This document shows, in pieces, positions 4,794 through 32,765 of a stretch of 32,765 nt of DNA; the first letter of the stretch is position 1; every line of letters starts with the position of its first letter. This stretch comes from Gammaproteobacteria bacterium. Lineage in GTDB: Bacteria; Pseudomonadota; Gammaproteobacteria; Burkholderiales; SG8-39. The position numbers were made by a program, and so were the translations under genes. The DNA lies in assembly GCA_041499545.1 (NCBI GenBank), contig JBGQKK010000003.1, positions 1 to 32,765 on the forward strand. The letters are read 5' to 3'. A model generated the notes under the pieces. The model ran no database searches. It saw only the letters and a list, made by a program, of their open reading frames with translations, and was not told the DNA's origin.

Positions 4794-5167
4794 AGCGATG
4801 GGCTGCGGGTAAGGGCTACCCCGACAATGTAGCCGAACACCGCGAGCGCGGCGAGCCAGGCGCCGACGCGCAGGCGTTTCGACCGCCCCGGCCGAAGAGC
4901 GACAATCCCGAGCGCGATATAGACGGGCAGCGCCACGATCTTCGCCGTAAGCCAGGAGCTCGCCCCGGGCGCCTCGCGCAGCATGAACGCGAGCCAGATC
5001 CCCGCCGCGAGCAGCACGGTGTCGTTGACATGCGGCACGATCCGCGCCCAGCGCCGGCTCAGTTGCGCCGAGTCGAGCATCATCCAGACCCCGCGAAGGA
5101 AGAACAGGCTGAAGCTTATCGCCACCGCCGCGAGATGGACGAGCTTGATCGCTACGATGTGCGTCAA
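4790..5167 (-). CDS. SirB2/YchQ-family small membrane protein (125 aa)
   Basis: C-terminal part of ORF 4790..5920: IKLVHL...SFSLFFLRG...IVPHVNDTVLLAAG...WLTAKIVAL..YIALG. Proposed TTG start at 5167 overlaps the radical SAM stop. Confidence 0.85.
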   Translation of the reverse strand: MTHIVAIKLVHLAAVAISFSLFFLRGVWMMLDSAQLSRRWARIVPHVNDTVLLAAGIWLAFMLREAPGASSWLTAKIVALPVYIALGIVALRPGRSKRLRVGAWLAALAVFGYIVGVALTRSPSL

Positions 5168-6636: not shown

Positions 6637-6721
6637 TTTCCTCCTCCGTGGGCTCGGTACGGCTAACCCACGATCATCCACGGAAAGCGCCGGGCCGTGG
6701 ACGGGAAAATCTGCTCGCTAT

Positions 6722-6735
6722 TTGATCTGGATCAA
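6722..6735. promoter_or_regulatory. FNR/Anr box, perfect consensus
   Basis: TTGAT-CTGG-ATCAA (extends to TTTGAT..ATCAAA), about 86 bp upstream of the radical SAM start. Confidence 0.88.
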
Positions 6736-10652: not shown

Positions 10653-11152
10653 CGCGTCCAGGTCGCGCGCAGGAGATTCTCTTCCTTGTTGTATTGCAGC
10701 GCGAGGCTGCCCTTGCAGGCGTCGTGGATGTTCTCGGCAATGCGCCGCGCCAGGTGCGCGTCGGTGGTGGTGACCATCACGCCGCCTTCGATATCCTTGA
10801 TCGCGATGATCCTCTGCATGGGATGCTCGGCCTTCTCTTTCGCCTCGCAGTTCTTGGCGAGGTTGAGGATCTCGTCGCGGTGGGCCGCGAGATACTCTCC
10901 GATCAGGCTTACGTATCCCGCGGGATAGCCGTCGCGGATGCGCTGGCATGCGGGGCACAGTTGCTCGTGCGCGGCCTCGCCCGGCTCGCCGCTCCAGGTC
11001 CAGCGGCCCTTGCGGAACATGACGCCGCACTCGGGGCAGCGCGTCGGATCGGGCAGCTTGCCCTTGGCCTTGTAGCTGTCGTGCCTCGGGTCGTCCTGCA
11101 GCTGCTCGCGACGCTGCGAGCGGGATCCGCCTCCGCTTCGTCCGCTTTTCAT
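10649..11152 (-). CDS. BCAM0308-family protein with two CxxC pairs (putative Zn ribbon)
   Basis: CPECG...W.W...CPACQRIRDGYPAG...EHPMQRI...TTDAHLARRI...LRATW. ATG overlaps the upstream stop. Confidence 0.75.
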   Translation of the reverse strand: MKSGRSGGGSRSQRREQLQDDPRHDSYKAKGKLPDPTRCPECGVMFRKGRWTWSGEPGEAAHEQLCPACQRIRDGYPAGYVSLIGEYLAAHRDEILNLAKNCEAKEKAEHPMQRIIAIKDIEGGVMVTTTDAHLARRIAENIHDACKGSLALQYNKEENLLRATWTR

Positions 11153-11514
11153 GATGCCTCCGTCCGCGCCGTGCGCACCCGCCGCGTCGCCGGCCGCTTC
11201 GCCTTGCCGCGGGTGACGCGCGTGCTGTCCTCGAGCTGGCGCCTGAGCGAGAGGAAGGTGTCGCGCAGGGCGAGGTAGGGATCCTTGTCATGCCGGTGGT
11301 TCGACACGATTTCCCTGCCTGGAATGCGCAGGTCGACGCGGACGTGAAAAAGGCGACCACTAGAGCGGTGCCTACGCAATTCCTCGATGCTGACGCGGCA
11401 GCTCACGATGCGCGTGTGAAATTTCTCCAGCTTCTCGGCTATTTTCCGCACTCGCGCCTCTAGCGCCGCCGAGCGCGGCAGGTTGAGGACGGTAATCTGA
11501 AGGGGGACTCGCAT
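11149..11514 (-). CDS. HPF/RaiA (S30AE) family ribosome-associated protein
   Basis: MRVPLQIT...SAALEARVR..EKLEKF..RIVSCRV...FHVRVDL.IPG.EIV...DPYLALRDTF..LRRQL. No cold-shock domain is appended. Confidence 0.85.
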   Translation of the reverse strand: MRVPLQITVLNLPRSAALEARVRKIAEKLEKFHTRIVSCRVSIEELRRHRSSGRLFHVRVDLRIPGREIVSNHRHDKDPYLALRDTFLSLRRQLEDSTRVTRGKAKRPATRRVRTARTEAS

Positions 11515-12046: not shown

Positions 12047-12060
12047 TTGATCTGCGTCAA
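12047..12060. promoter_or_regulatory. FNR box in the divergent promoter region
   Basis: TTGAT-CTGC-GTCAA (9/10). Plus-strand TACGAT at 12083-12088 gives -41.5 geometry. Minus-strand TACAAT at 12015-12010 lies ahead of the usp gene. Confidence 0.85.
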
Positions 12061-14649: not shown

Positions 14650-17372
14650 GCCGGGTGAGCTCGATGAGGGAGATTTCGGGCAAGCACTATCTGACGCCGC
14701 TGTTCGAGCCGGGCTCGGTCGCCGTCGTCGGCGCAAGCGAGGCGCCCGGCAAGGTGGGCAGCGTGCTCCTTTCCAACTTGCTCGCCGCCGGTTACCGGGG
14801 GGCGCTGTTCGCGGTCAATCCGAAGTACTCGACGGTAAGAGGGGTGCCTTGCTACGCGTCGGTCGGCAAGGTTCCCGCGCATATCGATCTCGCCGTCGTG
14901 GCGACGCCCGCGGGTACCGTGCCGGGAGTGATCGACGAGTGCGGCAGGGCGGGCGTGCGCTCCGCGGTCGTCATCACGGCCGGTTTCTCCGAGGCCGGGT
15001 CCGAAGGCGCGAAGCTCGAGCAGGCGCTGCTCGACAGCGCGCACCGCTGGGGAGTGCGTCTCATCGGTCCGAATTGCCTGGGCATCGCGCGCCCCGAGCT
15101 GGGGCTCAACGCCACCTTCGCACGCGGCGCGGCGCTGCCCGGGTCGCTCGGCCTGGTGTCGCAGTCCGGCGCCGTGTGCGCGGCCATGCTCGACTGGGCC
15201 GCGCCGAATAAGATCGGCTTTTCCTGCATCGTGTCGCTCGGGGGCTCGAGCGACATCGATTTCGGCGAGATCATCGACTATCTCGCGAACGACTCCAAGA
15301 CCGAGCACATCCTGCTCTACATCGAGGGAATCCGCGACGCGCGCCGCTTCCTCTCATCCTTGCGCGCGGCGGCGCGCACGAAGCCGGTCATCGTCATGAA
15401 AGTCGGGCGCCATCCCGCGGGGTCGCGGGCCGCGGTGTCGCACACCGGCGCGATCGTGGGCACGGACGACGTGTTCGACGCGGCGATGGAGCGTGCCGGG
15501 GTGGTGCGCGTCTTGAGTGTCGGCCAGCTGGTGGCCGCCGCGCAGGCGCTCGCTTCGCACGTGCGCCCGAAGGGCGACCGGCTCGCCGTGATCACCAACG
15601 GCGGCGGGCCCGGCGTGATGGCCGCGGACCGGCTTGCCGACCTCGGACTTTCGCTCGCCGAGCTTGCCCCCGACACGGTGCAAGCCCTGCACCAGGCGCT
15701 TCCGTCCAACTGGTCCCACGGGAATCCGATCGACCTGATCGGCGATGCCGACAGTGCGCGCTACAAGGCTGCGGTTTCCGCCTGCCTCGCCGATCAGGGC
15801 GTCGACGGGATCCTGGTGATTCTCACGCCGCAGGCGATCACCGAGGCCGATGCGACGGCCCGCGCGGTGGCCGATGCGGCGCGCGGCGCCTCCAAACCGC
15901 TCATCGCCTGCTGGATGGGCGAGGCGAGCGTGGCCGCCGCGCGCAAGCTCCTGCACGATGGCTCGATCCCGGTGTTCCGAACGCCCGACCCCGCGGTCGA
16001 GATGTTCGCGCACCTCGCCGCCTACTACCGCAATCAGCGCACCCTGCTCCAGGCGCCGGGACCGCTCGCGCACCAGGCCGCGCCGGACGTCGGGGGAGCG
16101 CGGCTCGTCATCGACAGCGCTCTCGCCGAGCGTCGCAAGCTGCTCTCCGAAACGGAATCCAAGGCACTGCTCGCAGCGTTTCACATCCCGATCGCGCAGA
16201 CCGTCCTCGCGCGCTCGGCGAACGACGCCATGCTGATGGCGCAGGAAATGGGCTTTCCGGTCGCCATGAAGATCGATTCGCCCGATATCCCGCACAAGAG
16301 CGACGTCGGCGGCGTCCAGCTCAACCTCATGGACGCGGAAGGCGTGCGCTCCGGCTACCGGCGCATGATCGAGGAGGTCGGCGGCAAGCGGCCGGACGCG
16401 CGCCTGAACGGCGTCACGGTCGAGCCGATGATCACGCGGCCTCACGGGCGCGAGCTCATCGTCGGCGTCATCCGGGACTCGGTCTTCGGGCCCGCGATCA
16501 CCGTCGGCATGGGCGGCAGGGCGGTGGAAGTCCTTCGCGACCGCGCTGTGGCACTGCCGCCGCTCAATCCGTTTCTCGTCAGGGCCATGATCGGGCGCAC
16601 GCGGGTTTCCCGGCTGCTCGGAACGTTCCGCAGGATGCCGGCGGCCGACATGCAGGCGCTCGAATCGGTGCTGCTCAGGATCTCGGAGATGGTGTGCGAG
16701 CTGCCGCAGATCGAGGAGTTCGAGATCAACCCGCTCATCGCGGACGAGAGCGGTGAGATTGCGGTGGATGCGCGCGCCGTGGTGAGGGAGGTGCCGCCGA
16801 CGCGCAACCGCTACGCGCACATGGCGATTCATCCCTACCCCACCGATCTCGTGGCGAAGTGGGAGCTTTCCGACGGCACGACCGTCGAGACCCGGCCGAT
16901 ACGCCCGGAAGACGCCGAAATGGAGCAGCAGTTCGTGCGGAGCCTCTCGGAGCGCAGCCGCTACTTTCGTTTCATGAACTCGGTGCGCGAGCTGACGCCA
17001 GCGATGCTGATGCGCTTCACCCAGATCGATTACGATCGCGAAATGGCGTTCGTGTCGGTGCGCGGCGAGGCGGGCCGGGAGGAGGAAATCGCGGTGGCGC
17101 GCTACGTGACCAACCCCGACGGAAGGACCTGCGAGTTCGCCGTCGCCGTCGCCGACGCGTGGCAGGGCAAGGGGCTCGGCCGGCGCATGCTCGAGAACCT
17201 CGTCGCCGTGGCGCGCTCGCGAGGGCTCGAGGTGATGATCGGCCACGTTCTTGCGGCCAACGAGCCGATGCTCGCCATGTGCGCGAAGCTGGGCTTCCGG
17301 ATATCCGACCATCCGGAGGATGCGACGCTGAGGCGCGCCACGCTGGATCTCGCCACGTCCCGGCGGGGTTGA
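14646..17372 (+). CDS. pat: Acyl-CoA synthetase (ADP-forming)-like/GNAT fusion, Pat/Pka-type protein lysine acetyltransferase
   Basis: ATG at 14646 overlaps the ATPase stop. CoA-binding domain (VAVVGAS, GPNCLG), SQSGA, SHTGA, TNGGGPG, ATP-grasp HKSDVGGV, and C-terminal GNAT (RPIRPED, EFAVAVADAWQGKGLG). Confidence 0.9.
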   Translation: MSRVSSMREISGKHYLTPLFEPGSVAVVGASEAPGKVGSVLLSNLLAAGYRGALFAVNPKYSTVRGVPCYASVGKVPAHIDLAVVATPAGTVPGVIDECGRAGVRSAVVITAGFSEAGSEGAKLEQALLDSAHRWGVRLIGPNCLGIARPELGLNATFARGAALPGSLGLVSQSGAVCAAMLDWAAPNKIGFSCIVSLGGSSDIDFGEIIDYLANDSKTEHILLYIEGIRDARRFLSSLRAAARTKPVIVMKVGRHPAGSRAAVSHTGAIVGTDDVFDAAMERAGVVRVLSVGQLVAAAQALASHVRPKGDRLAVITNGGGPGVMAADRLADLGLSLAELAPDTVQALHQALPSNWSHGNPIDLIGDADSARYKAAVSACLADQGVDGILVILTPQAITEADATARAVADAARGASKPLIACWMGEASVAAARKLLHDGSIPVFRTPDPAVEMFAHLAAYYRNQRTLLQAPGPLAHQAAPDVGGARLVIDSALAERRKLLSETESKALLAAFHIPIAQTVLARSANDAMLMAQEMGFPVAMKIDSPDIPHKSDVGGVQLNLMDAEGVRSGYRRMIEEVGGKRPDARLNGVTVEPMITRPHGRELIVGVIRDSVFGPAITVGMGGRAVEVLRDRAVALPPLNPFLVRAMIGRTRVSRLLGTFRRMPAADMQALESVLLRISEMVCELPQIEEFEINPLIADESGEIAVDARAVVREVPPTRNRYAHMAIHPYPTDLVAKWELSDGTTVETRPIRPEDAEMEQQFVRSLSERSRYFRFMNSVRELTPAMLMRFTQIDYDREMAFVSVRGEAGREEEIAVARYVTNPDGRTCEFAVAVADAWQGKGLGRRMLENLVAVARSRGLEVMIGHVLAANEPMLAMCAKLGFRISDHPEDATLRRATLDLATSRRG

Positions 17373-17382
17373 TCCAGGTCAA
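17369..17382 (+). promoter_or_regulatory. FNR box overlapping the pat stop codon
   Basis: TTGAT-CCAG-GTCAA (9/10), centred about 41 bp upstream of the next gene's GTG. Confidence 0.78.
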
Positions 17383-20669: not shown

Positions 20670-20972
20670 ATGACCAAGCATTCGAAGCAGACTTCGGAGG
20701 AAATCGATTTCGCGGAAGTGACCAAGCTGATCCACGCGCTGGAGCGCGATCTCGCCAGCGTGCGCAAGGGCTCCCGCGACGTGCAGCTCCTGCGCGACGA
20801 AGTGGAGACGCTGAAGAACGTGCTCAACTCGCCGATCCGCAGGCATCATTGGGTGCGGGAGGGCCTGCATGCGGTGCGCGAGGCGGTCGAGAATGGAATG
20901 GAAACCGTTGTCGCGGACGGCCTGAAGGCGGGACAATACATCGCCGAGATCGGCAGAATACTCGGCATGTGA
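20670..20972 (+). CDS. Small helical hypothetical protein (100 aa)
   Basis: Strong GGAGG RBS, GC3-rich codons, fills the gap exactly. TAGAAT -10-like hexamer at 20645-20650. Confidence 0.8.
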   Translation: MTKHSKQTSEEIDFAEVTKLIHALERDLASVRKGSRDVQLLRDEVETLKNVLNSPIRRHHWVREGLHAVREAVENGMETVVADGLKAGQYIAEIGRILGM

Positions 20973-22575: not shown

Positions 22576-23364
22576 TCAGTGCGACTGCCCCAGCACCTTG
22601 CGCAGCCCGTCCACGTCGAGAATGTGGATGCGCTTCTGCTGGACGCTGATCAGGCCGTCGTCCTGGAAGCGGGAGAAGGCACGGCTCACGGTTTCGAGCT
22701 TCAGGCCGAGATAGCTGCCGATCTCCTCGCGCGTCATGCGCAGGTTGAACTCCGAAGGGGAGTAGCCGCGCGCGGCGAAGCGCTGCGAGAGATTCATGAG
22801 GAAGGTCGCCAGGCGCTCCTCTGCGCGCATCGTGCCGAGCAGCAGCATCACGCCGTGCTCGCGCACGATCTCGCGGCTCATGACCTTGTGAAACTGGTGC
22901 CGCAACTCGTGCATGTCGCGGCCGAGGCTCTCCAGCCGCGAATATGGGATCACGCACACCTCGCTGTCTTCCAGCGCGACCGCGTTGAGGACGTGCGCGT
23001 CGGGACCGATTCCGTCCATGCCCATGATCTCGCCGGCCATGTTGAAACCGGTCACCTGGTCCCGCCCGTCCTCGAGCGTCTGCACCGTCTTGAAGAATCC
23101 GCTGCGGACCGCGTAGATCGAGCTGAACTCGTCTCCCGCCCGGTACAGGCTCTCTCCGCGCTTCACGCGGCGCCGGGTGTAGATCAGCTGGTCGACCCGG
23201 TCGACTTCCTGCCCGGAGAGGCCGCAGGGCAGGCACATTTCGCGCAGGCCGCAGGTGGAGCAGCGGGTCTGGACCTTCGCGACGTTCCCGTACGTCGCTT
23301 CGCGGACCGGGGTCGCGGGCCCGAGAATCGGGACGAACACGGCTGCGCTTGCTGTGGCTGTCAT
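22576..23364 (-). CDS. fnr: O2-sensing [4Fe-4S] Crp/Fnr transcription regulator
   Basis: CSTCGLREMC plus VCVIP Cys ligands, AEERLATFL, MTREEIGSYLGLKLETVSR (ExxSR recognition helix). ATG at 23364 with AAGGA RBS. Confidence 0.95.
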   Translation of the reverse strand: MTATASAAVFVPILGPATPVREATYGNVAKVQTRCSTCGLREMCLPCGLSGQEVDRVDQLIYTRRRVKRGESLYRAGDEFSSIYAVRSGFFKTVQTLEDGRDQVTGFNMAGEIMGMDGIGPDAHVLNAVALEDSEVCVIPYSRLESLGRDMHELRHQFHKVMSREIVREHGVMLLLGTMRAEERLATFLMNLSQRFAARGYSPSEFNLRMTREEIGSYLGLKLETVSRAFSRFQDDGLISVQQKRIHILDVDGLRKVLGQSH

Positions 23365-23401
23365 GGTGGTTTCCTTTCTCAATTTCGGATTTTTTGCTGT
23401 T

Positions 23402-23797
23402 CTAGTGACGTGTGGCGCCGAGCCCCGCGATGACCTCGCGGACCTTGGCGATTTCGCTGCTCTTGTCGAAGAAGTACGCGGCTCCCGCCTCCATGCAGAC
23501 GCGGCGGTACTGCGCATTCGGGTGGTTGGTCAGGACGATGAACACCGTGTCCGGCGTCTGCGGGTGCGCCCGGCGCAGCACGTCCAGCCCGCTGCCCCCG
23601 ATGAGGTGGATGTCGAGCACGACCGAGTCCGGCCGCGTGCGCAGGATGCCTTCGAGCGCCTCTGCGGGCGTTTCCGCCTGGCCCACCACGGTCACGCCCT
23701 CGATGCCGCCGAGCATCGCGGCCAAGCGCTCGCGGACCGAGGCCGAGTCCTCGACGATGAAGACGTTCATCTCGGCTTCGGACGGGGCGGTCTGCAT
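23402..23797 (-). CDS. Single-domain response regulator (receiver only)
   Basis: VFIVEDS, VVLDIHL..GSG, IVLTN, FFDK, with no output domain. Start is at 23797 or 23770. Confidence 0.88.
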   Translation of the reverse strand: MQTAPSEAEMNVFIVEDSASVRERLAAMLGGIEGVTVVGQAETPAEALEGILRTRPDSVVLDIHLIGGSGLDVLRRAHPQTPDTVFIVLTNHPNAQYRRVCMEAGAAYFFDKSSEIAKVREVIAGLGATRH

Positions 23798-23877
23798 GCC
23801 TACAGTATGCAAAGCGACGCCGTATCGGGCCATCAGCGGCGGCCTAAATGGGCGGTCGGAAAGCGCTGAAATGCGCT

Positions 23878-23914
23878 GTAGGAGGAGTCCCCTGGCGACT
23901 GGGAATCGTCCTAC
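23878..23914. promoter_or_regulatory. Imperfect inverted repeat, candidate operator upstream of receiver-fnr
   Basis: GTAGGAGGAGTCCC-N9-GGGAATCGTCCTAC, with 12 of 14 positions complementary. Confidence 0.45.
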
Positions 23915-24011
23915 CACCGGAGAACTGCGCGCAGGGACGGATCGCGAGTTCCGCGGCAAGACAAGGACTGCGGCGAGCGCGCTCCCGGCTGCTCCCGAAA
24001 GAACTCTGGAA

Positions 24012-24938
24012 TCAACGGCTACCGGCACGTTCGGCCTTCCGGCCGTACATGGCGGAGTCGGCGGAATTCAGGAGTGTGGCGCCATCCATGCCGTCCTCGG
24101 GGAAGAAGCTCATCCCGACGCTGCAGGCGATGCGAATGGCTCCGCGCGTCGTCGGCACCTCCCCCCGCAGGGATACGAGAACCCGGTTCATCGCCTGGGC
24201 TATCCCGTTCCGGCTTTCGGTCTCGTCGAGCAGCAGGACGAACTCGTCGCCGCCGAAGCGCGCCGCTATGTCGCCCGCGCGGACCTGCCCGGCGAGGCGC
24301 TCGGCCACGTGCCTCAGGATCTCGTCGCCGACGGCATGGCCGAAACGGTCGTTCACGCGCTTGAGCCCGTCGACATCGACCATCGCCACAGCGAAACTCC
24401 GGCCGTGCCGCTGCGCGCGAGCGATCATCTGCGACAGGCGCTCATTGAGCAGATACCGGTTGGGCAGGCCGGTCAGCGCGTCATGGTTGGCCTTGCGTTC
24501 GAGCCGCTCCCGCTCGGCGCGGGCCTCGGTGACGTCGTCGAGCACCGCAACGTAGTGCGTGAGCTTGCCGCCATCGTCCGGAACCGGCGCGATCATGAGA
24601 TGGTTCCAGAACAGGCTGCCGTTCCTGCGGTAATTGCGCAGCAGGACGCTCGCCGGACGCTTCTCCGCCAATGCCGCGCGCAGCGCATCCAGCTCGGGCT
24701 GCTCGCGGTCGTCGCCCTGCAGGAAGCGGCAGTTGCGCCCTAGGATTTCGTGCAGCAGGTAACCGGTCAGGCGCTCGAAGGCGACGTTCGCGAATACGAT
24801 CGGGTGATCCGCTACGGTGACGTCGGCCACGACGACCGGAATGACGCTGGCCCGCAGGGCGCGCTCCAGCAGCGTCGACTGCGACCCGATCGCAGCGGCG
24901 GACTTACCGGGGTTCCTCGCCGGATTCAGTAAGCGCAC
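24012..24938 (-). CDS. LOV(PAS)-GGDEF diguanylate cyclase
   Basis: PIVFAN.AF..LTGY...GRNCRFLQG...RNYRRNG..FWN, then HDALTGLPNR, DVDGLKRVNDRFGH, RAGD I-site and RFGGDEF. GTG start is uncertain (no clear RBS). Confidence 0.9.
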   Translation of the reverse strand: MRLLNPARNPGKSAAAIGSQSTLLERALRASVIPVVVADVTVADHPIVFANVAFERLTGYLLHEILGRNCRFLQGDDREQPELDALRAALAEKRPASVLLRNYRRNGSLFWNHLMIAPVPDDGGKLTHYVAVLDDVTEARAERERLERKANHDALTGLPNRYLLNERLSQMIARAQRHGRSFAVAMVDVDGLKRVNDRFGHAVGDEILRHVAERLAGQVRAGDIAARFGGDEFVLLLDETESRNGIAQAMNRVLVSLRGEVPTTRGAIRIACSVGMSFFPEDGMDGATLLNSADSAMYGRKAERAGSR

Positions 24939-25224
24939 GGCGGAGTCAGGAAGAAAAAGGCCGCGCAGGGGCCCGCACCGGCAGACCCCCGCGCGCCAAG
25001 GCCCTAGGGAAGGGCCACGAAATCGGCCATTGCGGGGTCAGGGAGAAGAGGGCCCACAACGACCGAGAAGCCTTGCTCGCGGCATCGCTCAAGTTCTCGC
25101 CACTCCTGTGGAAAATTCGGGTTTTACCCGTTTCATTTCGCATCGTGATGACGAAAGCATGGCCGGACAATACGCGCGAACGCGTACGTGGCAGCACGTA
25201 GGGGGTTGCCTGACAGGTTGAGAA

Positions 25225-25872
25225 CTAGGGGTTCGAAATGCGCTTGCGACGTGCCGCCGGCGCGGCCTGGAACAGGCCCGCGGCACGGGCAATGGCGGCA
25301 AGTCCGACGAGCGTCTTGGCTCCGGCCTTGCGCATAATGCGCGCGCGATGGATCTCGACGGTGCGGTGGCTGATTGCCAGGCGGCGTGCGATGTCCTTGC
25401 TGGAGTGTCCGGCCACGATGAAGGGCAACACATCGCGCTCACGGCTCGTCAACTCCTGCAGCGCCTTGCGCGCCGCCTCTCGCGACGCGCGTTCCGAGCG
25501 CCGGGCCGCGTCCTGTGCCAGCGCCTCGCCGACGCGGGCGAGCAGGGTGCGGCTGTCGGCGGGCTTTTGCAGGAAATCGATCGCGCCGGCCCGCAGCGCG
25601 CGCACCGAGCTCGGCACATCGCCGTGCCCGGTGAGAAAGATGATGGGAAGCTCGACGCCGCGCGCGGCGAGCGCTCCTTGCAGCTCGATGCCGCTCATTC
25701 CGGGAAGACGCATGTCCAACACGAGGCAGCCGGCCTGCCCGGGCTCGCAGGCCTCGAGGAAGCGCTCGGCGCTCTCGAAGAGCTTCACGCGGAAACGTCT
25801 GCCCTCGAGGAGCTGGGCCAGCGCGTCGCGCACCGCCGCGTCGTCCTCCACCACGTAGACGGTCCCGGTCAC
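25225..25872 (-). CDS. fixJ: FixJ-family response regulator (REC + LuxR HTH)
   Basis: VYVVEDD, CLVLDMRLPGMSG, IIFLTGHGDV, DFLQKP, LTSRE, ISHRTVEIHRARIMRK. GTG at 25872 overlaps the kinase stop (GTGA). Confidence 0.85.
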   Translation of the reverse strand: MTGTVYVVEDDAAVRDALAQLLEGRRFRVKLFESAERFLEACEPGQAGCLVLDMRLPGMSGIELQGALAARGVELPIIFLTGHGDVPSSVRALRAGAIDFLQKPADSRTLLARVGEALAQDAARRSERASREAARKALQELTSRERDVLPFIVAGHSSKDIARRLAISHRTVEIHRARIMRKAGAKTLVGLAAIARAAGLFQAAPAARRKRISNP

Positions 25873-28800
25873 GACGTCGCCGGTAAGGTGAAGTGAATCA
25901 CTCCGCACGGGCCGGCCTCGGCCCAGATGCGGCCTCCGTGCGCCTCGACGATCGAGCGGCTAATGCGCAATCCCATGCCCAGGCCGTCCTGCTTGGTCGT
26001 GTAAAACGGCTCGAAGATCTTCTCGGCGACGTCCGGGGCTATGCCGCGCCCGGTGTCGGTCACCGTGATCCGGATCGAGCCGTTCTCGGCCCGAGTACGA
26101 ATGGCGACCGTGCCTTCGCCTGCGCCGCCGGCACGGACCGCCTCGATGCCGTTGCTCACGAGGTTCACCAGCACGTGCTCGATGCTGAGCGCGGAGGCCA
26201 TGACCTTGGGCAGCGTATGGGCGAGATCGAACTCGAGCCTGACGTTGCGCGCCCGCGCGTCTGCGGCGAGAAGGCCGAAGGCCTGGCGTGCGAGCGCGTT
26301 GGCGTCCATCGGCTCTTTTTGCAGCTCGCCCTTGGTGAGGAACGAGCGCAGCTCGCGGATGACCTTGCCGGCGCGCTGCGCCTGCGTCGAGATCTGCTCG
26401 AGGTTCCGCGCGAGGTTGTCCGACGAAACGTCGCCCGCGCGCAGCTTGTCCAGGCAGGCGTCGCTGTAGCCGGCGATCGCTGCAAGCGGCTGGTTGAGCT
26501 CGTGTGCGAGCGCGGTCGCAAGCTCGCCCGCGGTATGCAGCCGGTGCATGTGCGCGAGCTCGGCGAGGCGCTGGCGCGCCTCGTCCTCGGCGAGGCGCTG
26601 CTCGGTGATGTCGATGCCGGTGCGGATGATGTATTCCACCCGGCCCGCGCCGTCGTGCAGGACATTGTTCGACCAGGCGATGAGCCGCCGGGTGCCGTCC
26701 GCGCGCTGCCAGGCGCTTTGGGTTCGGTTGGGACCGCCCCCCGCCGCCAGCTCGGCGAAAGTCCGCCTGACATTCCTGACGTCCTCCGGGTGGAGCAGCA
26801 GGTCGAACACGCTCGTGCCCTGAACCTGCTCGAAGCTGCGGCCGGAAGCTTCTTCGCATGCGCGGTTGAAGCGCACCACCACCCCGTCTCGGTCGGTCAC
26901 CATCACGAGGGCTGGCATGGTCGCCAGCACTTCGGAAACGAAGTTGCGTTCGGCCAGCAGCTTCGCGTCGGCGTCTTCGCGAACATGCACCTCCGCCGCC
27001 AGCTCCGACGTCCGTTCCGCCACGCGCTCCTCGAGCGTGCCCGCGAGCCGGCGCAGCTCCGCCTCGAGGTTTTTCAGCGGCGTCACCTCGGTAAAGGCCA
27101 CGACCACGCCCTCGATCCGGTTGTCGAGCGTGCGGTACGGGGTGATGCGCCTGAGGTACCAGTGGCCGTCCTCGCTGCGGACTTCCTTCTCGCGCGCGGC
27201 AAGCTCGCCGATCACCGCGTCCACGTCACCGTGCAGCTCCGGGTCGGCGAAGCGCGCGACGATGTCCCCGATCGGCCGCCCTATGTCGCCCGGGATGAGC
27301 TTGAACAACCGCGTTGCGGCGGCACTGAAGCGCTTGATCCGGTAGTCCGCACCGAGGAACAGCGTCGCGATGTCCGCGCTGGACAGCAGGTTGGCGAGAT
27401 CGTTGTTCGTGGACTCCAGCTCTTCGAGCTTTTCCTGGAGCTGGCTGTTCACGGAGTTCAATTCCTCGTTGAGCGACTGCAGCTCCTCTTTCGAGGTTTC
27501 GAGCTCCTCGTTGGCCGATTGCAGCTCCTCGTTCATCGACATCGCCTCCTCGTTGGAGGCCTTCAGCTCCTCGTTGGCGCTCTCCAGCTCCTCGATCGCG
27601 CTCTGCAGCTCCTCGCGCGTGCTCTTCAGCTCGAATTCGAGCTGCTTGACGGTGCCTTCCTCGGCGCGGCTCGAAGCCGCCTTTGCGGCGGTCCGCTTTT
27701 GCTTCGATTCGTCCTCGAAGGTGACGAGCAGCAGCTCCTCTCCTCCCCGCGGCCCGCGCACCGGACGCGCGCCGACCCGCACCGTGACGGTGCTGCCGTC
27801 GCGCTTGACGCCCGGTGCGCTCAGAACCACCCTTCGGCCTTGCCGGCGTGTCTCCTGGACGGCGGCGCGGACGCGCGGCCGGAGCCCCTCGCGCGCGAGC
27901 GCGATCAGGTCGAGCGTCGGCGCGCCGCCCGGCTGCCTCAGGTACCGGTGAGTGGGCCCGTGGAAATACAGGATCTCGTAGTTTCGATTGATCAGCGCTG
28001 CGGCGGGCGCGTAGTCCTCGAGCAGCAAGCCCCTCGCTAGTTCCGCAACGCCGGCCGCCGGCGCGGGGGATGCAGACGCCTGCCCCGGGCGGAGCTCATC
28101 GCCCGAGCGGCCGGCCTGAATCGGAAATTCCATGCGCCCGCGCCGGGACGCCGCGGCACCGCCCCCGCGGCGGCGATAGATACGCCATTTCTTCGAGACC
28201 GGCTCGAACAGGTCGATCTCCCGGCCTACCGTCTCGGATGGCCCGAGCGCGAGGAAACCGCCTTCCCGGAGCGCGAAATGCAGCAGCAGCACCACTTTCC
28301 GCTGCACTTCGGGCTCGAGGTAGATGAGGAGATTGCGGCAGCTGATCAAGTCGAGCTTGGAAAACGGAGCGTCGCGCAGGATATCTTGCGACGCGAACAG
28401 CACCGAGTCGCGCACCTGCTTGTTCACCTGGTAGGTGTGATCGTCGAGCCGGACGAAGAAGCGGCTGGTCCGCTCGTCGCCCACCTCGGCGAGCTCGCTG
28501 GCGGTGTAGACGCCGCGGCGCGCGAACGCCAGCGCGCTCTCGTCGATGTCCGTGGCGAAGATCTGCAGCGGCCAGGTCTTTTGTGTCGCCGCGATCTGCT
28601 CGATGAACAGCATGGCGATCGAATAGGCTTCTTCGCCTGTAGCGCAGCCCGGCACCCAGATGCGCAAGGGCGTATCGGCGACTTTCTCCTGCAGCAGTTC
28701 CGGAACCACCTGTGCCTCGAGCACCCGGAACATCTCGCGGTCGCGGAAGAAATTCGTCACGCTAATGAGCAGGTCCTGCGACAGCAGCTTCAGCTCTTCG

Positions 28801-29720
28801 GGCCGGTCGCGCAGCAGTTTCGCGTAGTCGGCGAGGCGCTCGATGCGGCTGAGCCCCATGCGGCGCTGCACGCGCCGCAGCAGCATCCCCTTGCGGTAGG
28901 AACGGAAGTCGAACTTGGTGCGCGTGCGCAGCAGCGCCAGGATCGGGGTGAGGTCGGGAGAAACGCTCGCCGGCGCGATGCCGGGCTGGCCCGGAGGAAC
29001 GAAGTGCCTCACGTACTTGATCAGCGCCGCCGGCATCTCCTCGACCGGAAGGACGAAGTCGGCGAGGCCCGAGGCGACCGCGCTGCGCGGCATGGCGTCG
29101 TACTCGGCCGATCGGGGCTCCTGGACCATGGCCATGCCGCCGTTCGCCTTGATCGCCTTCAAGCCCAGCGTGCCGTGGGACCCCGTGCCGGAGAGGATGA
29201 TGCAGAGCGCGCGCTCCTGCTGGTCTTCCCCCAGCGAGCGCAGAAAGATGTCGAGCGACGTATGCACGGCGCTGGGCTCCAGCGGATCGGACAAGGACAA
29301 AATGCCGTCCTTGATGCGCATGTACTTGTTCGGCGGCACCACATAGACGTGATCGGGTTGCACCCGGACGCCCTCGGCGGCCTCGCTGACGGCCATCGCG
29401 GTCTGCTTCTCGAGCAGCGGCACCATGTAGCTCTCGTGTCGGCGATCGAGGTGCGGCACGAGAACGAAGGCGATGCCGCTGTCGGCCGGCATGGCGTGGA
29501 AGAATCTCTTGAAAGCATCCAGTCCGCCGGCGGAGGCGACCATGCCGACCACGGCGAGCGCGGTGCTCGTCCCCGGGCCGTGCTGCAAATCCTGCTGGGA
29601 CGCGGCGAGGTGAACGGCCGGCGCGGCGGCGCGGCGCCCCGCGTCCGGAGGCGGAACGGCGAGCCGGGAGCGCGCGCGGCCGGCCCCTTTCGCGCGCTGG
29701 GTCGGCCTGGGCTTGTTCAT
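25869..29720 (-). CDS. CheB-CheR-coiled coil-PAS-PAS-histidine kinase fusion (1283 aa)
   Basis: CheB ASAGGL/VPHL/ILSGTGSHG; CheR ISVTNFFRD, WVPGCATGEEAYS, ATDID, DLISCRNLLIY; EEL heptads; PAS domains; H-box LAHELNQPL; N, G1, F and G2 boxes. Confidence 0.93.
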   Translation of the reverse strand: MNKPRPTQRAKGAGRARSRLAVPPPDAGRRAAAPAVHLAASQQDLQHGPGTSTALAVVGMVASAGGLDAFKRFFHAMPADSGIAFVLVPHLDRRHESYMVPLLEKQTAMAVSEAAEGVRVQPDHVYVVPPNKYMRIKDGILSLSDPLEPSAVHTSLDIFLRSLGEDQQERALCIILSGTGSHGTLGLKAIKANGGMAMVQEPRSAEYDAMPRSAVASGLADFVLPVEEMPAALIKYVRHFVPPGQPGIAPASVSPDLTPILALLRTRTKFDFRSYRKGMLLRRVQRRMGLSRIERLADYAKLLRDRPEELKLLSQDLLISVTNFFRDREMFRVLEAQVVPELLQEKVADTPLRIWVPGCATGEEAYSIAMLFIEQIAATQKTWPLQIFATDIDESALAFARRGVYTASELAEVGDERTSRFFVRLDDHTYQVNKQVRDSVLFASQDILRDAPFSKLDLISCRNLLIYLEPEVQRKVVLLLHFALREGGFLALGPSETVGREIDLFEPVSKKWRIYRRRGGGAAASRRGRMEFPIQAGRSGDELRPGQASASPAPAAGVAELARGLLLEDYAPAAALINRNYEILYFHGPTHRYLRQPGGAPTLDLIALAREGLRPRVRAAVQETRRQGRRVVLSAPGVKRDGSTVTVRVGARPVRGPRGGEELLLVTFEDESKQKRTAAKAASSRAEEGTVKQLEFELKSTREELQSAIEELESANEELKASNEEAMSMNEELQSANEELETSKEELQSLNEELNSVNSQLQEKLEELESTNNDLANLLSSADIATLFLGADYRIKRFSAAATRLFKLIPGDIGRPIGDIVARFADPELHGDVDAVIGELAAREKEVRSEDGHWYLRRITPYRTLDNRIEGVVVAFTEVTPLKNLEAELRRLAGTLEERVAERTSELAAEVHVREDADAKLLAERNFVSEVLATMPALVMVTDRDGVVVRFNRACEEASGRSFEQVQGTSVFDLLLHPEDVRNVRRTFAELAAGGGPNRTQSAWQRADGTRRLIAWSNNVLHDGAGRVEYIIRTGIDITEQRLAEDEARQRLAELAHMHRLHTAGELATALAHELNQPLAAIAGYSDACLDKLRAGDVSSDNLARNLEQISTQAQRAGKVIRELRSFLTKGELQKEPMDANALARQAFGLLAADARARNVRLEFDLAHTLPKVMASALSIEHVLVNLVSNGIEAVRAGGAGEGTVAIRTRAENGSIRITVTDTGRGIAPDVAEKIFEPFYTTKQDGLGMGLRISRSIVEAHGGRIWAEAGPCGVIHFTLPATS
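27415..27635 (-). repeat. Degenerate 21-bp coding periodicity (EEL heptad coiled coil)
   Basis: Recurrent 'agctcctcg' on the + strand encodes REELQSAIEELESANEELKASNEEAMSMNEELQSANEELETSKEELQSLNEEL. Confidence 0.8.
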
Positions 29721-29741: not shown

Positions 29742-30395
29742 TCAGGCACTGTCCCTGTCCGGGTCGTCGACCAGCCGGTGGTGGATGGCGTAGCGAATGA
29801 GCTCGGCGGGGTTGCTCATATTCATTTTCTGCATGATGCGCGCCTTGTGCGTGCTCACCGTCTTCACCGAGAGGTTGAGCTCCGCAGCGATGTCCGACAC
29901 GGCCTTGCCGGAGACCAGCTCCCGGAACACCTGGAATTCGCGATCGGAGAGCGCCGCGTGCGGGGGGCCGTCGGTTTGCGGCATCGCGCCGAGGGCGAGC
30001 TGCTGCGCCACCGAGTCGGTGATGAAGGCGCCGCCGGCCGCGACCTTGCGGATCGCCGAGACGAGCTGCGCCGAGGCGCTGTCCTTGGTGAGATAGCCGG
30101 AGGCGCCGGCCTTGATCGCGCGCACCGCGTACTGCTCCTCCTCGTGCATGCTGAGCACGAGGACGCGCAGCTTGGGTTTTTCCGCGCGCACCTGCTTGAT
30201 GAGCTCGATGCCGCTCCTTCCAGGCATCGACATGTCGAGCAGGAGCACGTCGAAGTCGAGGGCGCGCACCCGCTCGAGCACCTCGTGCCCGTTCTGCGCC
30301 TCCCCGATCACCGACAGATCCGATGCCGCGGAGAGGAGTTGCTTGAGACCCTCCCGGACGATCGTATGGTCGTCGGCGACGACGATGCGGATCAT
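29742..30395 (-). CDS. NarL/UvrY-family response regulator
   Basis: MIRIVVADDH, LLDMSMPG, VLSMH.E.QYAVRAIKAGASGYLTK, LSDREFQV, LSVKTVSTHK. ATG at 30395 overlaps the kinase stop. Confidence 0.93.
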   Translation of the reverse strand: MIRIVVADDHTIVREGLKQLLSAASDLSVIGEAQNGHEVLERVRALDFDVLLLDMSMPGRSGIELIKQVRAEKPKLRVLVLSMHEEEQYAVRAIKAGASGYLTKDSASAQLVSAIRKVAAGGAFITDSVAQQLALGAMPQTDGPPHAALSDREFQVFRELVSGKAVSDIAAELNLSVKTVSTHKARIMQKMNMSNPAELIRYAIHHRLVDDPDRDSA

Positions 30396-31708
30396 GGCTT
30401 GGCCGCCTCCGGCTCCAGGGGAATCGACACCTCGATGCTCGTGCCGCGGCCAGGCTCGCTCGCGATGCGCGTCTCCCCCCCCAGCAGGACGGTGCGCTCG
30501 CGCAGGCCGAGCAGGCCGTAGGTCTTGTGCGTGCGCGCCTCGGCGGGGCTGAATCCCAGCCCGTCGTCCCGCACGGTGAGCTTCAGGACGCCGTCGGTCC
30601 GCTCGAGGGCGATCTCGACCCGCCTGGCCTTGGCGTGCCGCGCCACGTTGGTGAGCGATTCCTGCAGAATGCGGTACAGGGCGCTTGCGCGCGGTTCCGC
30701 GAGCTCGAGATCGGGCGGGTCGATCTGCAGAGCGCAGGAGATTCCGGTCCGCTCGCTGAAGTTCTGCGCGAGCCACTCGGTCGCCGGGACTAGGCCGAGG
30801 TCGTCGAGCATCAAGGGCCTCAGGTCCGCCGAAATGCGCCGTGTCGCGGCCACCGTGGCGTCGAGCTGCGCCTGCATCGTGTCGAGCTTGTCGGCGAGCG
30901 AGGGCGCGCCCGCCGAGAGGTTTCCCTGCATCCAGGCCACGTCCATCTTGAGCGCGGTGAGAGACTGTCCCAGCTCGTCGTGGATCTCCCGGGCGATGCG
31001 GCGCTGCTCCTGTTCCCTGACCGTGTGCGCGGCGACCGAAAGTTCGCGCAGCTCCTCCCGGGACCGCCTGAGCTCCTCGTCCGCCTGCACGCGCTTGGTC
31101 ACGTCGCGCAGGATCACGGTGAAGAGCTTTCTCCCGTTCTCGACGTGCTGGGAGATCGACGCCTCGATCGGAAATTCCTCTGCGCTCGCGCGCAATCCGT
31201 AGAGCACGCGCGGATCGCCCATGCGCCGCGAGCTCGTGCCGCTCAGGCTGAACTGCTCGAGGTGGCTGCGGTGGGCGGCGCGCAGGCGCTGCGGGATGAG
31301 CGTGTCGAGCGGCCGCCCCAGGACGGCGGCGCGGGGCCAGAGAAACACCTTTTCGGCCGCTTGGTTGTAGAGCACGATGCGCTGCGATTCGTCCACCGAA
31401 ATGATCGCGTCCATCGCCGAATGGACGAGGTCGCCGACCCGGGCTTCGGCGCTTTGCAGCGCGGTGTCGGCCGCCCTGCGCTCGTCGGTTTGCCGGTAGA
31501 AGAGCACGACCGCGAGCAGCATCACCAGCGCGCCGACGACGGTGGCGACCGCGTACATTTCGTGCCGGTAAAAGCCGAAAAGGCCGGCGGCGAGCGCGAG
31601 CAGGACGGTGAAGACCCCGAGCGCGAGCACCGGCCCGAAGATGATCAGCAGCCTGCCCCGGACGTACCGGCCGTTGCCGTTAGGCAACGCGTCGTCGGGT
31701 ATTCTCAT
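30392..31708 (-). CDS. Membrane PAS sensor histidine kinase (HisKA_3)
   Basis: Two closely spaced TMs, PAS domain, IAREIHDELGQSLT, LRP.MLDDLGL, RILQESLTNVARH, DDGLG, GLLGLRER. Probable ATG at 31708 (MRIPDD). Confidence 0.9.
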   Translation of the reverse strand: MRIPDDALPNGNGRYVRGRLLIIFGPVLALGVFTVLLALAAGLFGFYRHEMYAVATVVGALVMLLAVVLFYRQTDERRAADTALQSAEARVGDLVHSAMDAIISVDESQRIVLYNQAAEKVFLWPRAAVLGRPLDTLIPQRLRAAHRSHLEQFSLSGTSSRRMGDPRVLYGLRASAEEFPIEASISQHVENGRKLFTVILRDVTKRVQADEELRRSREELRELSVAAHTVREQEQRRIAREIHDELGQSLTALKMDVAWMQGNLSAGAPSLADKLDTMQAQLDATVAATRRISADLRPLMLDDLGLVPATEWLAQNFSERTGISCALQIDPPDLELAEPRASALYRILQESLTNVARHAKARRVEIALERTDGVLKLTVRDDGLGFSPAEARTHKTYGLLGLRERTVLLGGETRIASEPGRGTSIEVSIPLEPEAAKP

Positions 31709-31714
31709 CGGGAT

Positions 31715-31728
31715 TTGACCCACGTCAA
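31715..31728 (+). promoter_or_regulatory. FNR box upstream of hemN
   Basis: TTGAC-CCAC-GTCAA, a perfect palindrome extending to TTTGAC..GTCAAA. CATAGT -10-like hexamer at 31750-31755 gives about -41 geometry. Confidence 0.85.
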
Positions 31729-31799
31729 ACTTTCCGGGCTTGCCGGCTCCATAGTGACGCATGGTCGAACTGCTCGTCCGGCCCCATGCCGAACAATTC

Positions 31800-32765
31800 A
31801 TGTCTTCCGATCTCGTCGTCGATCCCGAGCTGATCCGGAAGTACGGAGGGAGCGGGCCGCGCTACACGTCCTACCCGACCGCCGACCGGTTCGTCGAGGC
31901 ATTCAATTCGGCGGCATACGGACATTGGCTCGCAAACCGCAATGTCGGAGGAGAGGTTAGACCGCTTGCATTATACGTACACCTGCCGTTCTGCGACACG
32001 ATCTGCTATTACTGCGCCTGCAACAAGATCATCACCAAGGATCACGGTCGCTCGGCCAAGTACCTGAAACACCTGGGCCGGGAAATCCGGCTCACCGCGG
32101 CCTGCCTCGGCGAGGACCGCGCGGTGGGGCAGATGCACTGGGGCGGCGGCACTCCGACCTTCCTGAGCGAGGCCGAGCTCTCGGAGCTGATGGAGATCAT
32201 CCGCTCCGAATTCAAGCTCGACCCCTCGGGCGAGTACGCGATCGAGGTCGATCCGCGCAAGGTCGGCGCCGAGAAGATCGCGCTGCTCGGGCGGCTCGGA
32301 TTCAACCGCCTGAGCCTGGGCGTGCAGGACTTCAACCCCGAGGTGCAAAAGGCCGTGCACCGCGTGCAGTCCATCGACGAGTCGATGCAGGTCGTTCTCG
32401 CCGCGAGGCGCAACGGGTTCAAGTCGGTCAACATCGACCTCATCTACGGCCTGCCCAAGCAGAGCGTGGCGAGCTTCGCGCGCACGCTCGACACGGTGAT
32501 CGAGAGCGACCCGGACCGGATCGCGCTCTACTCCTACGCCCACCTGCCGACGGTGTTCAAGCCGCAGCGGCGCATCGCCGAGGCCGACCTGCCGCATCCC
32601 GAGGAAAAGCTCGCCATCCTCATCGGCTCGATCGAGCGGCTGCAGGCCGCCGGCTACCTCTACATCGGCATGGACCATTTCGCCAAGCCCGGCGACGATC
32701 TCGCCGTGGCGCAGCGCCAGGGACGGCTCACGCGCAACTTCCAGGGCTACTCGAGCGTAGGCGAC
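31800..32765 (+). CDS. hemN: Oxygen-independent coproporphyrinogen III oxidase, 3'-truncated by the window edge
   Basis: Absent from the ORF track because there is no stop; translated by hand: GPRYTSYPTA, LYVHLPFCDTICYYCACNK, HWGGGTPT, FNRLSLGVQDF, DLIYGLP, IGMDHFA, RNFQGYS. Alternative in-frame ATG at 31761. Confidence 0.96.
   Translation, partial: MSSDLVVDPELIRKYGGSGPRYTSYPTADRFVEAFNSAAYGHWLANRNVGGEVRPLALYVHLPFCDTICYYCACNKIITKDHGRSAKYLKHLGREIRLTAACLGEDRAVGQMHWGGGTPTFLSEAELSELMEIIRSEFKLDPSGEYAIEVDPRKVGAEKIALLGRLGFNRLSLGVQDFNPEVQKAVHRVQSIDESMQVVLAARRNGFKSVNIDLIYGLPKQSVASFARTLDTVIESDPDRIALYSYAHLPTVFKPQRRIAEADLPHPEEKLAILIGSIERLQAAGYLYIGMDHFAKPGDDLAVAQRQGRLTRNFQGYSSVGD

Follow-up and report, generated by a model that had tools for sequence, protein, structure and literature searches.

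A predicted glutamine-less LOV diguanylate cyclase of the short-linker LadC type within a low-oxygen regulatory island from an uncultured lineage of the Burkholderiales

Natural LOV receptors that lack the active-site glutamine (Gln), termed LOV-deltaQ receptors, were described by Dietler et al. (2022, Nat Commun 13:2618, PMC9098866), who reported about 350 of them, mostly with leucine (Leu) or isoleucine (Ile) instead. Their filter calls for at least 8 of the 9 YtvA residues G59, N61, C62, R63, F64, L65, Q66, N94 and N104 and for the absence of Gln at Q123 (PMC9098866). The parts of that study considered here also report that the glutamine of YF1 can be replaced by nearly any residue save Pro, His, Trp, Tyr and Arg, that the Q-to-L exchange keeps the light response in YF1, NmPAL (17-fold) and AsLOV2, that crystal structures of AsLOV2 Q513L show the same light-induced changes as the wild type, and that a natural methionine (Met)-type LOV-GGDEF protein (Mesorhizobium loti WP_140774521.1) is regulated, specifically repressed, by blue light (PMC9098866). 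Here we describe a gene for a predicted LOV diguanylate cyclase with Leu in place of this glutamine, located at 24012..24938 on the minus strand of a 32,765-nucleotide (nt) stretch of DNA from an uncultured gammaproteobacterium of the order Burkholderiales (lineage SG8-39; assembly GCA_041499545.1, contig JBGQKK010000003.1, positions 1 to 32,765). This whole stretch is referred to as the window.

The second group of described proteins relevant to this gene are the LadCs, which Vide et al. (2023, PMC10396304) defined by one LOV domain, one C-terminal GGDEF domain and five motifs, i.e., FxxxT(G/E)Y, Gx(N/D)C(R/H)(F/I)L(Q/A), N(Y/F)xxx(G/D)xx(F/L)xN, DxLT and GG(D/E)EF. Two subfamilies are distinguished in that work, with linkers of 21 amino acids (aa; short) and 35 aa (long), MsLadC having a 35-aa linker, and the four characterized LadCs are light-activated (PMC10396304). 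The short-linker LadCs show about 15-fold light activation (PMC10396304); they are described as dimeric, with high dark activity and without a caged dark state (PMC10396304, PMC12805367).

Domain architecture and family membership

The gene encodes 308 aa, and its assignment draws on the open reading frame (ORF) and its translation, Pfam, a phmmer search against Protein Data Bank (PDB) sequences, an AlphaFold2 (AF2) model and Foldseek. PAS_9 (residues 41-138; 71.5 bits against a cut-off of 27) and GGDEF (residues 150-304, 24027..24491; 145.2 bits against a cut-off of 23.8, with profile positions 1-158 of 161 matched) are the sole Pfam domains across the 308 aa. All features of the gene lie on the minus strand. 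The LOV core (residues 23-137, 24528..24872), supported by Pfam, by phmmer against PDB sequences and by the nine-residue filter of Dietler et al., carries the motif GRNCRFLQG (24740-24714; read from the DNA as GGG CGC AAC TGC CGC TTC CTG CAG GGC), which includes the photoactive Cys70 (codon 24731-24729, read from the DNA), as well as the two flavin-contacting asparagines, N102 (in RNY) and N112 (in FWN). The canonical LOV signature GXNCRFLQ, with its adduct-forming cysteine in a PAS fold, is therefore present. The other canonical feature, the active-site glutamine of the I-beta strand, is absent; this strand reads HYVAVLDDVT, and Leu133 (codon CTC, 24540..24542) occupies the glutamine site. 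The GGDEF domain is full-length and contains a DALT motif (D153ALT, residues 153-156), an intact GGDEF motif (G229GDEF, 24254-24240) and, five residues ahead of the latter, the RAGD sequence of an RxxD I-site (24281-24270), i.e., the features that mark a GGDEF cyclase. A first-pass annotation, made from the sequence alone, had claimed an exact LOV signature with the photoactive Cys and both Asn, intact GGDEF and I-site motifs and a Leu codon at 24542-24540 within HYVAVLDDVT. Reading of the DNA and the Pfam matches bear these claims out, and motifs, domains and PDB alignments together support its description of the product as a putative Gln-less LOV diguanylate cyclase.

All nine residues of the LOV-deltaQ filter are present in the protein (G67, N69, C70, R71, F72, L73, Q74, N102 and N112, with the YtvA numbers mapped by motif order rather than by direct alignment) and Leu133 stands in place of the Gln, so that the protein joins the published LOV-deltaQ class. 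Judged by its sequence, it is a new member of a class that was itself published in 2022. The conservation of these residues was assessed in a 121-row alignment, consisting of the window protein and the 120 nearest homologues listed. Cys was found at the adduct position in 107 of the 121 rows, and these 107 rows carry Gln (72), Leu (34) or Ile (1) at the position of Leu133; as the sample is biased to relatives of a Leu-type query, these counts are uninformative on overall frequency. The columns of N102, R71 and Q74 hold the same residue in all 72 Gln-type homologues, and that of N112 does so in 71.

The protein also shows the LadC architecture, i.e., a single LOV domain and a single C-terminal GGDEF domain as found with Pfam, together with all five LadC motifs (F54ERLTGY, GRNCRFLQ, N102YRRNGSLFWN112, D153ALT and G229GDEF). 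Its best PDB relative is 8c05 (MsLadC), both by sequence (phmmer, E = 2.8e-46; 33% identity) and by fold (Foldseek on the AF2 model, E = 1.5e-26). In the phmmer alignment the linker is 14 residues shorter than in MsLadC (gaps of 10 and 4), and since the MsLadC linker has 35 aa, this corresponds to a 21-aa linker and places the protein in the short-linker subfamily, which includes AoLadC and DpLadC. The AF2 model, computed from a 56-sequence alignment (mean pLDDT 91.7), consists of an N-terminal helix (residues 10-30), a five-stranded PAS core, a helix at residues 137-151 and a GGDEF fold; the helix and the phmmer alignment together define a helical sensor-effector linker at about residues 137-151 (24486..24530). 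Taken separately, the two domains of the model fit known structures well, the LOV part matching 6hmj with a root-mean-square deviation (rmsd) of 1.6 A over 134 columns and the GGDEF part matching 4urg with an rmsd of 1.2 A over 153 columns. The low global TM-score to 8c05 (0.45, Foldseek) reflects a domain arrangement that differs from that of the caged dark-state crystal. By every sequence criterion, the protein is thus a LOV-GGDEF protein of the short-linker LadC type.

The leucine at the glutamine site and its consequences for signaling

The phmmer search against PDB sequences returned 210 distinct chains at E up to 0.001, and the best five alignments were examined. Leu133 faces Gln in all four of these that cover a LOV domain (8c05, 6hmj, 7r5n and 9vf7), the fifth covering a GGDEF domain only. 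In 6hmj (NmPAL), Leu133 aligns with index 347, and Dietler et al. give Q347 as the active-site glutamine of NmPAL (PMC9098866). The first-pass annotation had proposed to check the Gln-to-Leu position by alignment with YtvA, AsLOV2 and YF1; NmPAL and MsLadC served for this check and confirm the position, Gln lying opposite Leu133 in both.

As the source is a 64%-complete metagenome-assembled genome (MAG) in 357 contigs, the Leu could in principle reflect faulty sequencing or assembly, or decay of the gene. However, turning CTC into either Gln codon takes two base changes, which rules out a single-base error, and a search of 5.8 billion proteins yielded 18 full-length proteins at 74-99% identity, all of them metagenomic and all 18 with Leu. 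Leu133 is also kept in six of six independent orthologous metagenome loci (L108-L113) with synonymous codon variation (CTC in three, CTG in two and TTG in one), and none of the six has lost any of the nine flavin-pocket residues. The reading frame is unbroken, and pairwise ratios of nonsynonymous to synonymous substitution rates (dN/dS) between these loci and the window are below 1, ranging from 0.20 to 0.43 for the LOV part and from 0.22 to 0.58 for the GGDEF part. The 18 proteins and six loci refute an error or decay, to which we assign a practically negligible probability; together with the kept pocket and the dN/dS values, the loci indicate that the Leu is old, inherited and tolerated, and we conclude from these comparisons that it evolves under moderate purifying selection.

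Consistent placement of the window protein among Leu-type homologues was seen in a FastTree tree of 106 rows, from which the 14 Cys-less rows, a row near-identical to the window (P0001) and the column of the Leu133 site had been left out. The window protein fell into an 18-row clade with Leu throughout (support 100), nested in a 32-row clade with 28 Leu and 4 Gln (support 96), and the well-supported branches of the tree require at least three state changes at the Leu/Gln site.

Overall, we consider that the gene probably encodes a light-regulated LOV-deltaQ cyclase of the short-linker LadC type, with Leu133 in place of the I-beta glutamine. By homology, a parallel homodimer would bind flavin mononucleotide (FMN), and blue light would form an adduct between Cys70 and flavin C4a and protonate flavin N5. 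Without the glutamine, the change at N5 would be passed on to the I-beta/A-beta sheet by transient water or by steric effects, a route proposed for Q-to-L variants; a resulting shift in the register of the coiled-coil linker would alter the meeting of the two GGDEF half-sites, and synthesis of cyclic di-GMP (c-di-GMP) would become light-dependent, capped by product binding at RAGD. Expression would probably proceed from a regulator-bound palindrome through the structured, terminator-bearing leader described below. Light is favored as the input because the Cys and the full photochemical set are kept, because the protein belongs by sequence to the LadC family, whose tested members are light-activated, and because Q-to-L variants signal, and activation is the likelier sign of the response given that the four characterized LadCs are all activated by light. 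The claim of the first-pass annotation that natural Gln-less LOV receptors exist and can signal is itself borne out by the published examples (PMC9098866).

A number of observations weigh against a light-regulated cyclase. Constraint on the gene is moderate at most, as the dN/dS values of 0.2-0.58 show. At the start of the A-beta strand, P34 is found in 19 of 19 rows of the orthologue clade as compared to Gly in 63 of 72 Gln-type rows, and position 33 is Ser, Ile, Val or Cys in this clade as compared to Asn in 44 of 72 Gln-type rows, while near Leu133, Ala131 occurs in 17 of 19 orthologue-clade rows as compared to Gly in 71 of 72 Gln-type rows. In AsLOV2, Asn414 relays the signal at the A-beta-start location, although this Asn is not strictly conserved (PMC9098866). 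The canonical polar relay may therefore be more eroded in the orthologue clade, to judge from these residues, than in single Q-to-L mutants. The sign of the response cannot be predicted, and the one tested Gln-less LOV-GGDEF protein is light-repressed. Moreover, PF03441 (photolyase/cryptochrome) was found in none of 31 genus genomes, 12 of which are at least 90% complete (the same search matched 8 of 14 control genomes), BLUF and PHY domains were not detected in the 64%-complete assembly, and the metagenomes that contain DNA of this region are labelled sediment and soil, all of which makes light a less obvious cue. A second LOV motif was likewise not found in the 64%-complete assembly.

The apparent erosion of the hydrogen-bond relay keeps two other explanations alive. 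Under one of them, the LOV domain would be blind to light and serve as a flavin or dimerization scaffold, and a constitutive enzyme would be controlled by expression, through the upstream FixJ-family regulator and leader, and by product inhibition. This would agree with the high dark activity and missing caged state of the short-linker LadCs, with the derived state of all relay positions (33, 34, 131 and 133) in the orthologue clade and with the conserved leader, whose terminator and palindrome point to tight transcriptional control. Conservation nevertheless extends to the photoactive Cys and the two flavin-contacting Asn, engineered Q-to-L exchanges leave three receptors responsive to light, and even the short-linker LadCs remain about 15-fold activated; a light-blind scaffold thus appears quite improbable. 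The other explanation, in which the flavin serves mainly as a redox sensor, is considered below together with the genes that surround the cyclase.

The low-oxygen island, its accessory block and the structured leader

Read along the minus strand, the locus consists of a FixL-like heme-PAS HisKA_3 kinase (30392-31801), a NarL-type regulator that is its partner (29742-30395), a 1283-aa hybrid sensor kinase with the Pfam architecture CheB-CheR-PAS_10-PAS-HisKA-HATPase (25869..29720; hereafter CheB/CheR kinase), a FixJ-family regulator with receiver (REC) and GerE/LuxR helix-turn-helix domains by Pfam (25225..25908), the leader (24939..25224), the LOV-GGDEF gene, a single-domain receiver of 131 aa (23402..23797; Pfam Response_reg, start set by a conserved ATG), Fnr (22576..23364; 262 aa) and a hemerythrin identified with Pfam (22556-21990). 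USP, a ribosome hibernation factor, two P-type ATPases, NnrS and a B12-radical-SAM gene are found elsewhere on the contig. Fnr scores above its NCBIfam cut-off (248.4 bits against 228) and has Cys35, Cys38, Cys44 and Cys137 at spacings of 3, 6 and 93, which we take to be those of Cys20, Cys23, Cys29 and Cys122 in E. coli Fnr; its homologues in Burkholderiales MAGs are named Fnr. FixL heme domains are the best PDB matches of the FixL-like kinase, and both the proximal His and the Arg of their heme pocket are aligned; together with its NarL-type regulator, this kinase probably makes up the actual O2 sensor of the island. The kinase core is of the HisKA_3 (NarX/DesK) type and not that of FixL itself.

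A search for FNR boxes (TTGAT-N4-ATCAA, up to 2 mismatches) found 16 on the contig as compared to 3.26 expected, with a maximum of 9 in 100 shuffles. These include a perfect box (6722-6735) that precedes the B12-radical-SAM/DUF4070 gene (5164-6681), one-mismatch boxes at 12047-12060 and 17369-17382 and a further FNR/Anr-type box at 31715-31728. One of the one-mismatch boxes lies in the divergent USP/P-type ATPase promoter region and another ahead of the gene at 17416. A bona fide Fnr, a FixL-like heme-PAS kinase and enriched FNR boxes show that the anoxia regulatory cluster proposed by the first-pass annotation is real. The position it gave for the LOV gene, between fixJ and a receiver-fnr, holds as to gene order and needs two qualifications. 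The "fixJ" neighbor reaches 203.8 bits, below the NCBIfam FixJ cut-off of 255, and by its sequence is a FixJ/NarL-family regulator with the CheB/CheR-PAS kinase as its partner, and the receiver and fnr are two genes. In the window these lie 34 nt apart, and they are also separate in loci L108 and L112, where they are in different frames. Among 120 listed Fnr homologues, 26 are single proteins of 386-418 aa with Response_reg and Crp/Fnr domains, and such natural fusions imply that the receiver and Fnr work together.

Whether the LOV gene belongs to this island was assessed by comparing gene order among the orthologous loci. The FixJ-family regulator is located upstream of the LOV gene in all five loci with upstream sequence (L108, L109, L110, L112 and L113; L111 begins 57 nt before the LOV gene), and the CheB/CheR kinase is located upstream of the regulator in all three loci that are long enough (L108, L109 and L110; 87-90% identical). 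The receiver-Fnr pair (REC-Fnr), on the other hand, follows the LOV gene in only two of the six orthologous loci (L108 and L112), i.e., in three of seven when the window is included. The next gene after LOV is hyp100 in L109 and L110 and an acetyl-CoA-synthetase-like gene in L111, and neither REC-Fnr nor hyp100 was found within 1.9 kb of the LOV gene in L113. In the window, hyp100 (20670-20972, plus strand) encodes 100 aa without a Pfam or NCBIfam match and delimits the variable REC-Fnr/LOV region. Its presence in 24 of 30 same-genus genomes (52-91% identity) indicates that the contig fits the genus.

Five of the same-genus genomes (G002, G007, G008, G011 and G025) carry, in this order, the FixL-like kinase, NarL-type regulator, REC, Fnr, (UbiA) and hyp100 without the LOV block, so that the kinase-regulator pair is immediately followed by REC-Fnr. 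No orthologue of the LOV-GGDEF protein was found in the 30 same-genus genomes (best match about 40%), in 60 relatives (best match 49%, in other families) or in a collection of 185,579 species (best match 51%, Cognatilysobacter bugurensis), and no orthologue of the CheB/CheR kinase was found in the 30 same-genus genomes (best match 44%). Around the Leu-type relatives at 44-51% identity, the flanking sequences retrieved gave no Fnr or FixJ-like neighbors at E up to 1e-10, although several of these loci span only 3.8 kb. The missing LOV block in same-genus genomes with the O2 operon identifies 29720-24012 as a 5.7-kb inserted accessory cassette. This three-gene block (CheB/CheR-PAS kinase, FixJ-family regulator and LOV-GGDEF), as delimited by these sequence comparisons, sits between the regulator of the O2 operon and REC-Fnr. 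The GC content is flat across it (0.64-0.69) and thus gives no compositional sign of recent transfer. In G025, a gene for a non-LOV PAS-GGDEF protein of 334 aa (L225, 12454-13458; C195) lies between a second hyp100 copy and fnr; this protein has AGDEF for GGDEF, Leu at the I-beta site and no NCRFL motif, and it hints that c-di-GMP enzymes recur at the spot beside fnr.

The synteny with fnr and fixJ that the first-pass annotation had proposed to survey among homologues thus holds for the FixJ-family regulator (5/5 loci) and is variable for Fnr (3/7 loci). The link to the anaerobic switch that it drew is weak, given this variability, the five O2-operon genomes without the LOV block and the absence of an FNR box, at up to 2 mismatches, from the 286-nt region upstream of the LOV gene (24939-25224).

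These data bear on the explanation that the flavin is mainly a redox, and indirectly an O2, sensor, in which two-electron reduction of FMN under anoxia would protonate N5 and switch the cyclase without light, tying c-di-GMP to the low-oxygen island; this is the idea that the first-pass annotation put first. In its favor are the company of Fnr, the FixL-like kinase, hemerythrin, USP, the hibernation factor and NnrS, the excess of FNR boxes on the contig, the lack of a PF03441 match in 31 genus genomes and of BLUF, PHY and second LOV matches in the 64%-complete assembly, and the non-LOV PAS-(A)GDEF gene at the equivalent place beside fnr in one same-genus genome. The literature adds that LOV midpoint potentials are near cytosolic potentials (PMC11151830), which supports the background statement of the first-pass annotation that LOV flavins also respond to redox, that the AsLOV2 exchange Q513M raises the midpoint potential E0 (PMC11151830) and that LOV receptors have been suggested to descend from redox-active flavoproteins (PMC9098866). 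A pure redox sensor would, however, have no need of the cysteine, and Cys70 and the full photochemical set are kept in all six orthologues; REC-Fnr adjacency in a minority of loci, the lack of the block in 30 same-genus genomes and the lack of an FNR box upstream of the gene also argue against it, and the redox shift (redox tuning) reported for LovK is disputed and was not reproduced (PMC11151830). We therefore regard a mainly redox-sensing flavin as unlikely, and note that light and redox sensing are not mutually exclusive.

Between the FixJ-family gene and the LOV-GGDEF start lies a 286-nt leader (24939..25224, minus strand) that alignments of the six loci show to be strongly conserved and that comprises a palindrome, a TATTGT element just downstream of it, two conserved hairpins and a terminator-like hairpin. 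The last of these resembles an intrinsic terminator (24953..24995, minus strand; 15 pairs, 12 of them G-C) and, with its T-run, ends about 15-20 nt ahead of the start codon. The minimum free energy of the leader is -129.2 kcal/mol (z = -4.14; none of 200 shuffles folds as well). In a 39-pair consensus of its 3' 150 nt, five pairs are compensated on both sides, three of these in the terminator stem, a covariation that is suggestive of a structure in what are six related sequences only. The palindrome TACGTGCTGCCACGTA (25185..25200) has TACGT/ACGTA arms that are invariant in the six loci around a variable center, and no second exact TACGT-N6-ACGTA occurs in the 2.93-Mb assembly. It represents a candidate regulator-binding site, and its layout presumably resembles the 7-2-7 inverted sites of NarL/LuxR-type regulators.

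The leader DNA is single-copy in the assembly, and the leader was found only beside orthologues of the LOV-GGDEF gene. No match to it was found in the 30 same-genus genomes, and the 60 relatives gave only a 30-nt match (G040, E = 7e-4). An Rfam search of the whole window at gathering thresholds returned no matches, and a search of 23700-25300 with E values of up to 5 gave only a Bcj11 match of 17.7 bits, which lies inside a coding region and was treated as noise. The leader is therefore none of the known riboswitches, among them GEMM. A covariance model built from the six sequences (R1) gave two matches in 150 genomes of the order (21.6 and 18.6 bits), both with broken stems and one inside long ORFs, and these were rejected, as was a leader peptide, the sole short ORF falling in an indel-rich variable part of the leader. 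Inspection by eye only revealed no conserved alternative pairing that could act as an anti-terminator. For 23400-25950, no RNA data set was listed. No Shine-Dalgarno sequence is evident, and there is no room for a promoter between the terminator and the start codon, so that transcription of the LOV-GGDEF gene probably reads through the terminator. Such an arrangement is typical of riboswitches and attenuators, or of small RNA genes that are read through, and the leader may be one of these; it is the least explained feature of the locus.

A broader scenario, to which we give only a slim chance, would combine these elements into a mobile cassette whose cyclase is gated twice, by the FixJ-family regulator on the palindrome and by a riboswitch or attenuator in the leader (here roughly 200 nt long, the transcription start site not being mapped), and whose Leu-type pocket reports both light and reduction. 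If true, c-di-GMP would be set at the oxic-anoxic and light-dark boundary of sediments.

Two further ORFs of the window were noted in passing. A 391-aa ORF at 6761-7936 (minus strand) combines the N-terminal part of a fatty-acid desaturase (residues 11-215) with a partial ISL3-type DDE transposase (residues 269-390) and looks like a desaturase gene truncated by an insertion sequence remnant. The 1108-aa P-type ATPase ORF at 8034-11360 (minus strand) begins about 250 residues before its first Pfam domain and overlaps two better-supported ORFs in another frame, at 10649-11152 and at 11149-11514 (the hibernation factor), so that the true start probably lies downstream of the annotated one.

Comparison with described receptors

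In the literature searched, no paper characterizing a Leu-type natural LOV-GGDEF protein after Dietler et al. was found, and the term "glutamine-deficient" in connection with LOV was found only in Dietler et al.; the orthologue clade may already be listed in Supplementary Data 3 of that study. No finding presented here overturns current understanding. With this enzyme, a class defined in 2022-2023 would gain a short-linker LadC in which Leu is naturally fixed, the source being an uncultured lineage of the Burkholderiales. The enzyme would offer a natural test case for two questions, i.e., whether water-mediated signaling operates in a pocket that also lacks polar or small residues at the A-beta start, and whether loss of the glutamine moves the flavin potential far enough to permit redox sensing. 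The locus further presents a photoreceptor-type cyclase as a cassette inside an Fnr/FixL-like operon of a genus without photolyase in the genomes searched, and the unannotated conserved leader with its terminator ahead of the LOV-GGDEF gene is a further lead.

Among described systems, Caulobacter LovK resembles the protein in placing a flavin-binding LOV domain with a possible response to reduction in a bacterial signaling protein. LovK is, however, a histidine kinase with the canonical Gln, unlike the Leu-type LOV-GGDEF protein described here. The LOV-deltaQ receptors of Dietler et al. are closer, as the nine residues are kept, the Gln is missing, Leu is among the two commonest replacements and the tested example is itself a LOV-GGDEF protein. 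That tested protein (M. loti WP_140774521.1) differs in carrying Met and an extra EAL domain and in being repressed by blue light, whereas the protein described here is a stand-alone 308-aa LOV-GGDEF with Leu. The engineered variants YF1 Q123L, NmPAL Q347L and AsLOV2 Q513L share the same change at the same structural site, but they are single substitutions in Gln-adapted backgrounds, whereas here the Leu is ancestral to the clade and accompanied by further changes in the A-beta and I-beta strands. With the LadCs, finally, the protein shares one LOV and one C-terminal GGDEF domain, the five motifs, a linker of the 21-aa type and, as in most members, an RxxD site; it differs from them in the Leu that replaces the I-beta Gln, in the derived P34 and A131 and in its identity of 33% to 8c05.

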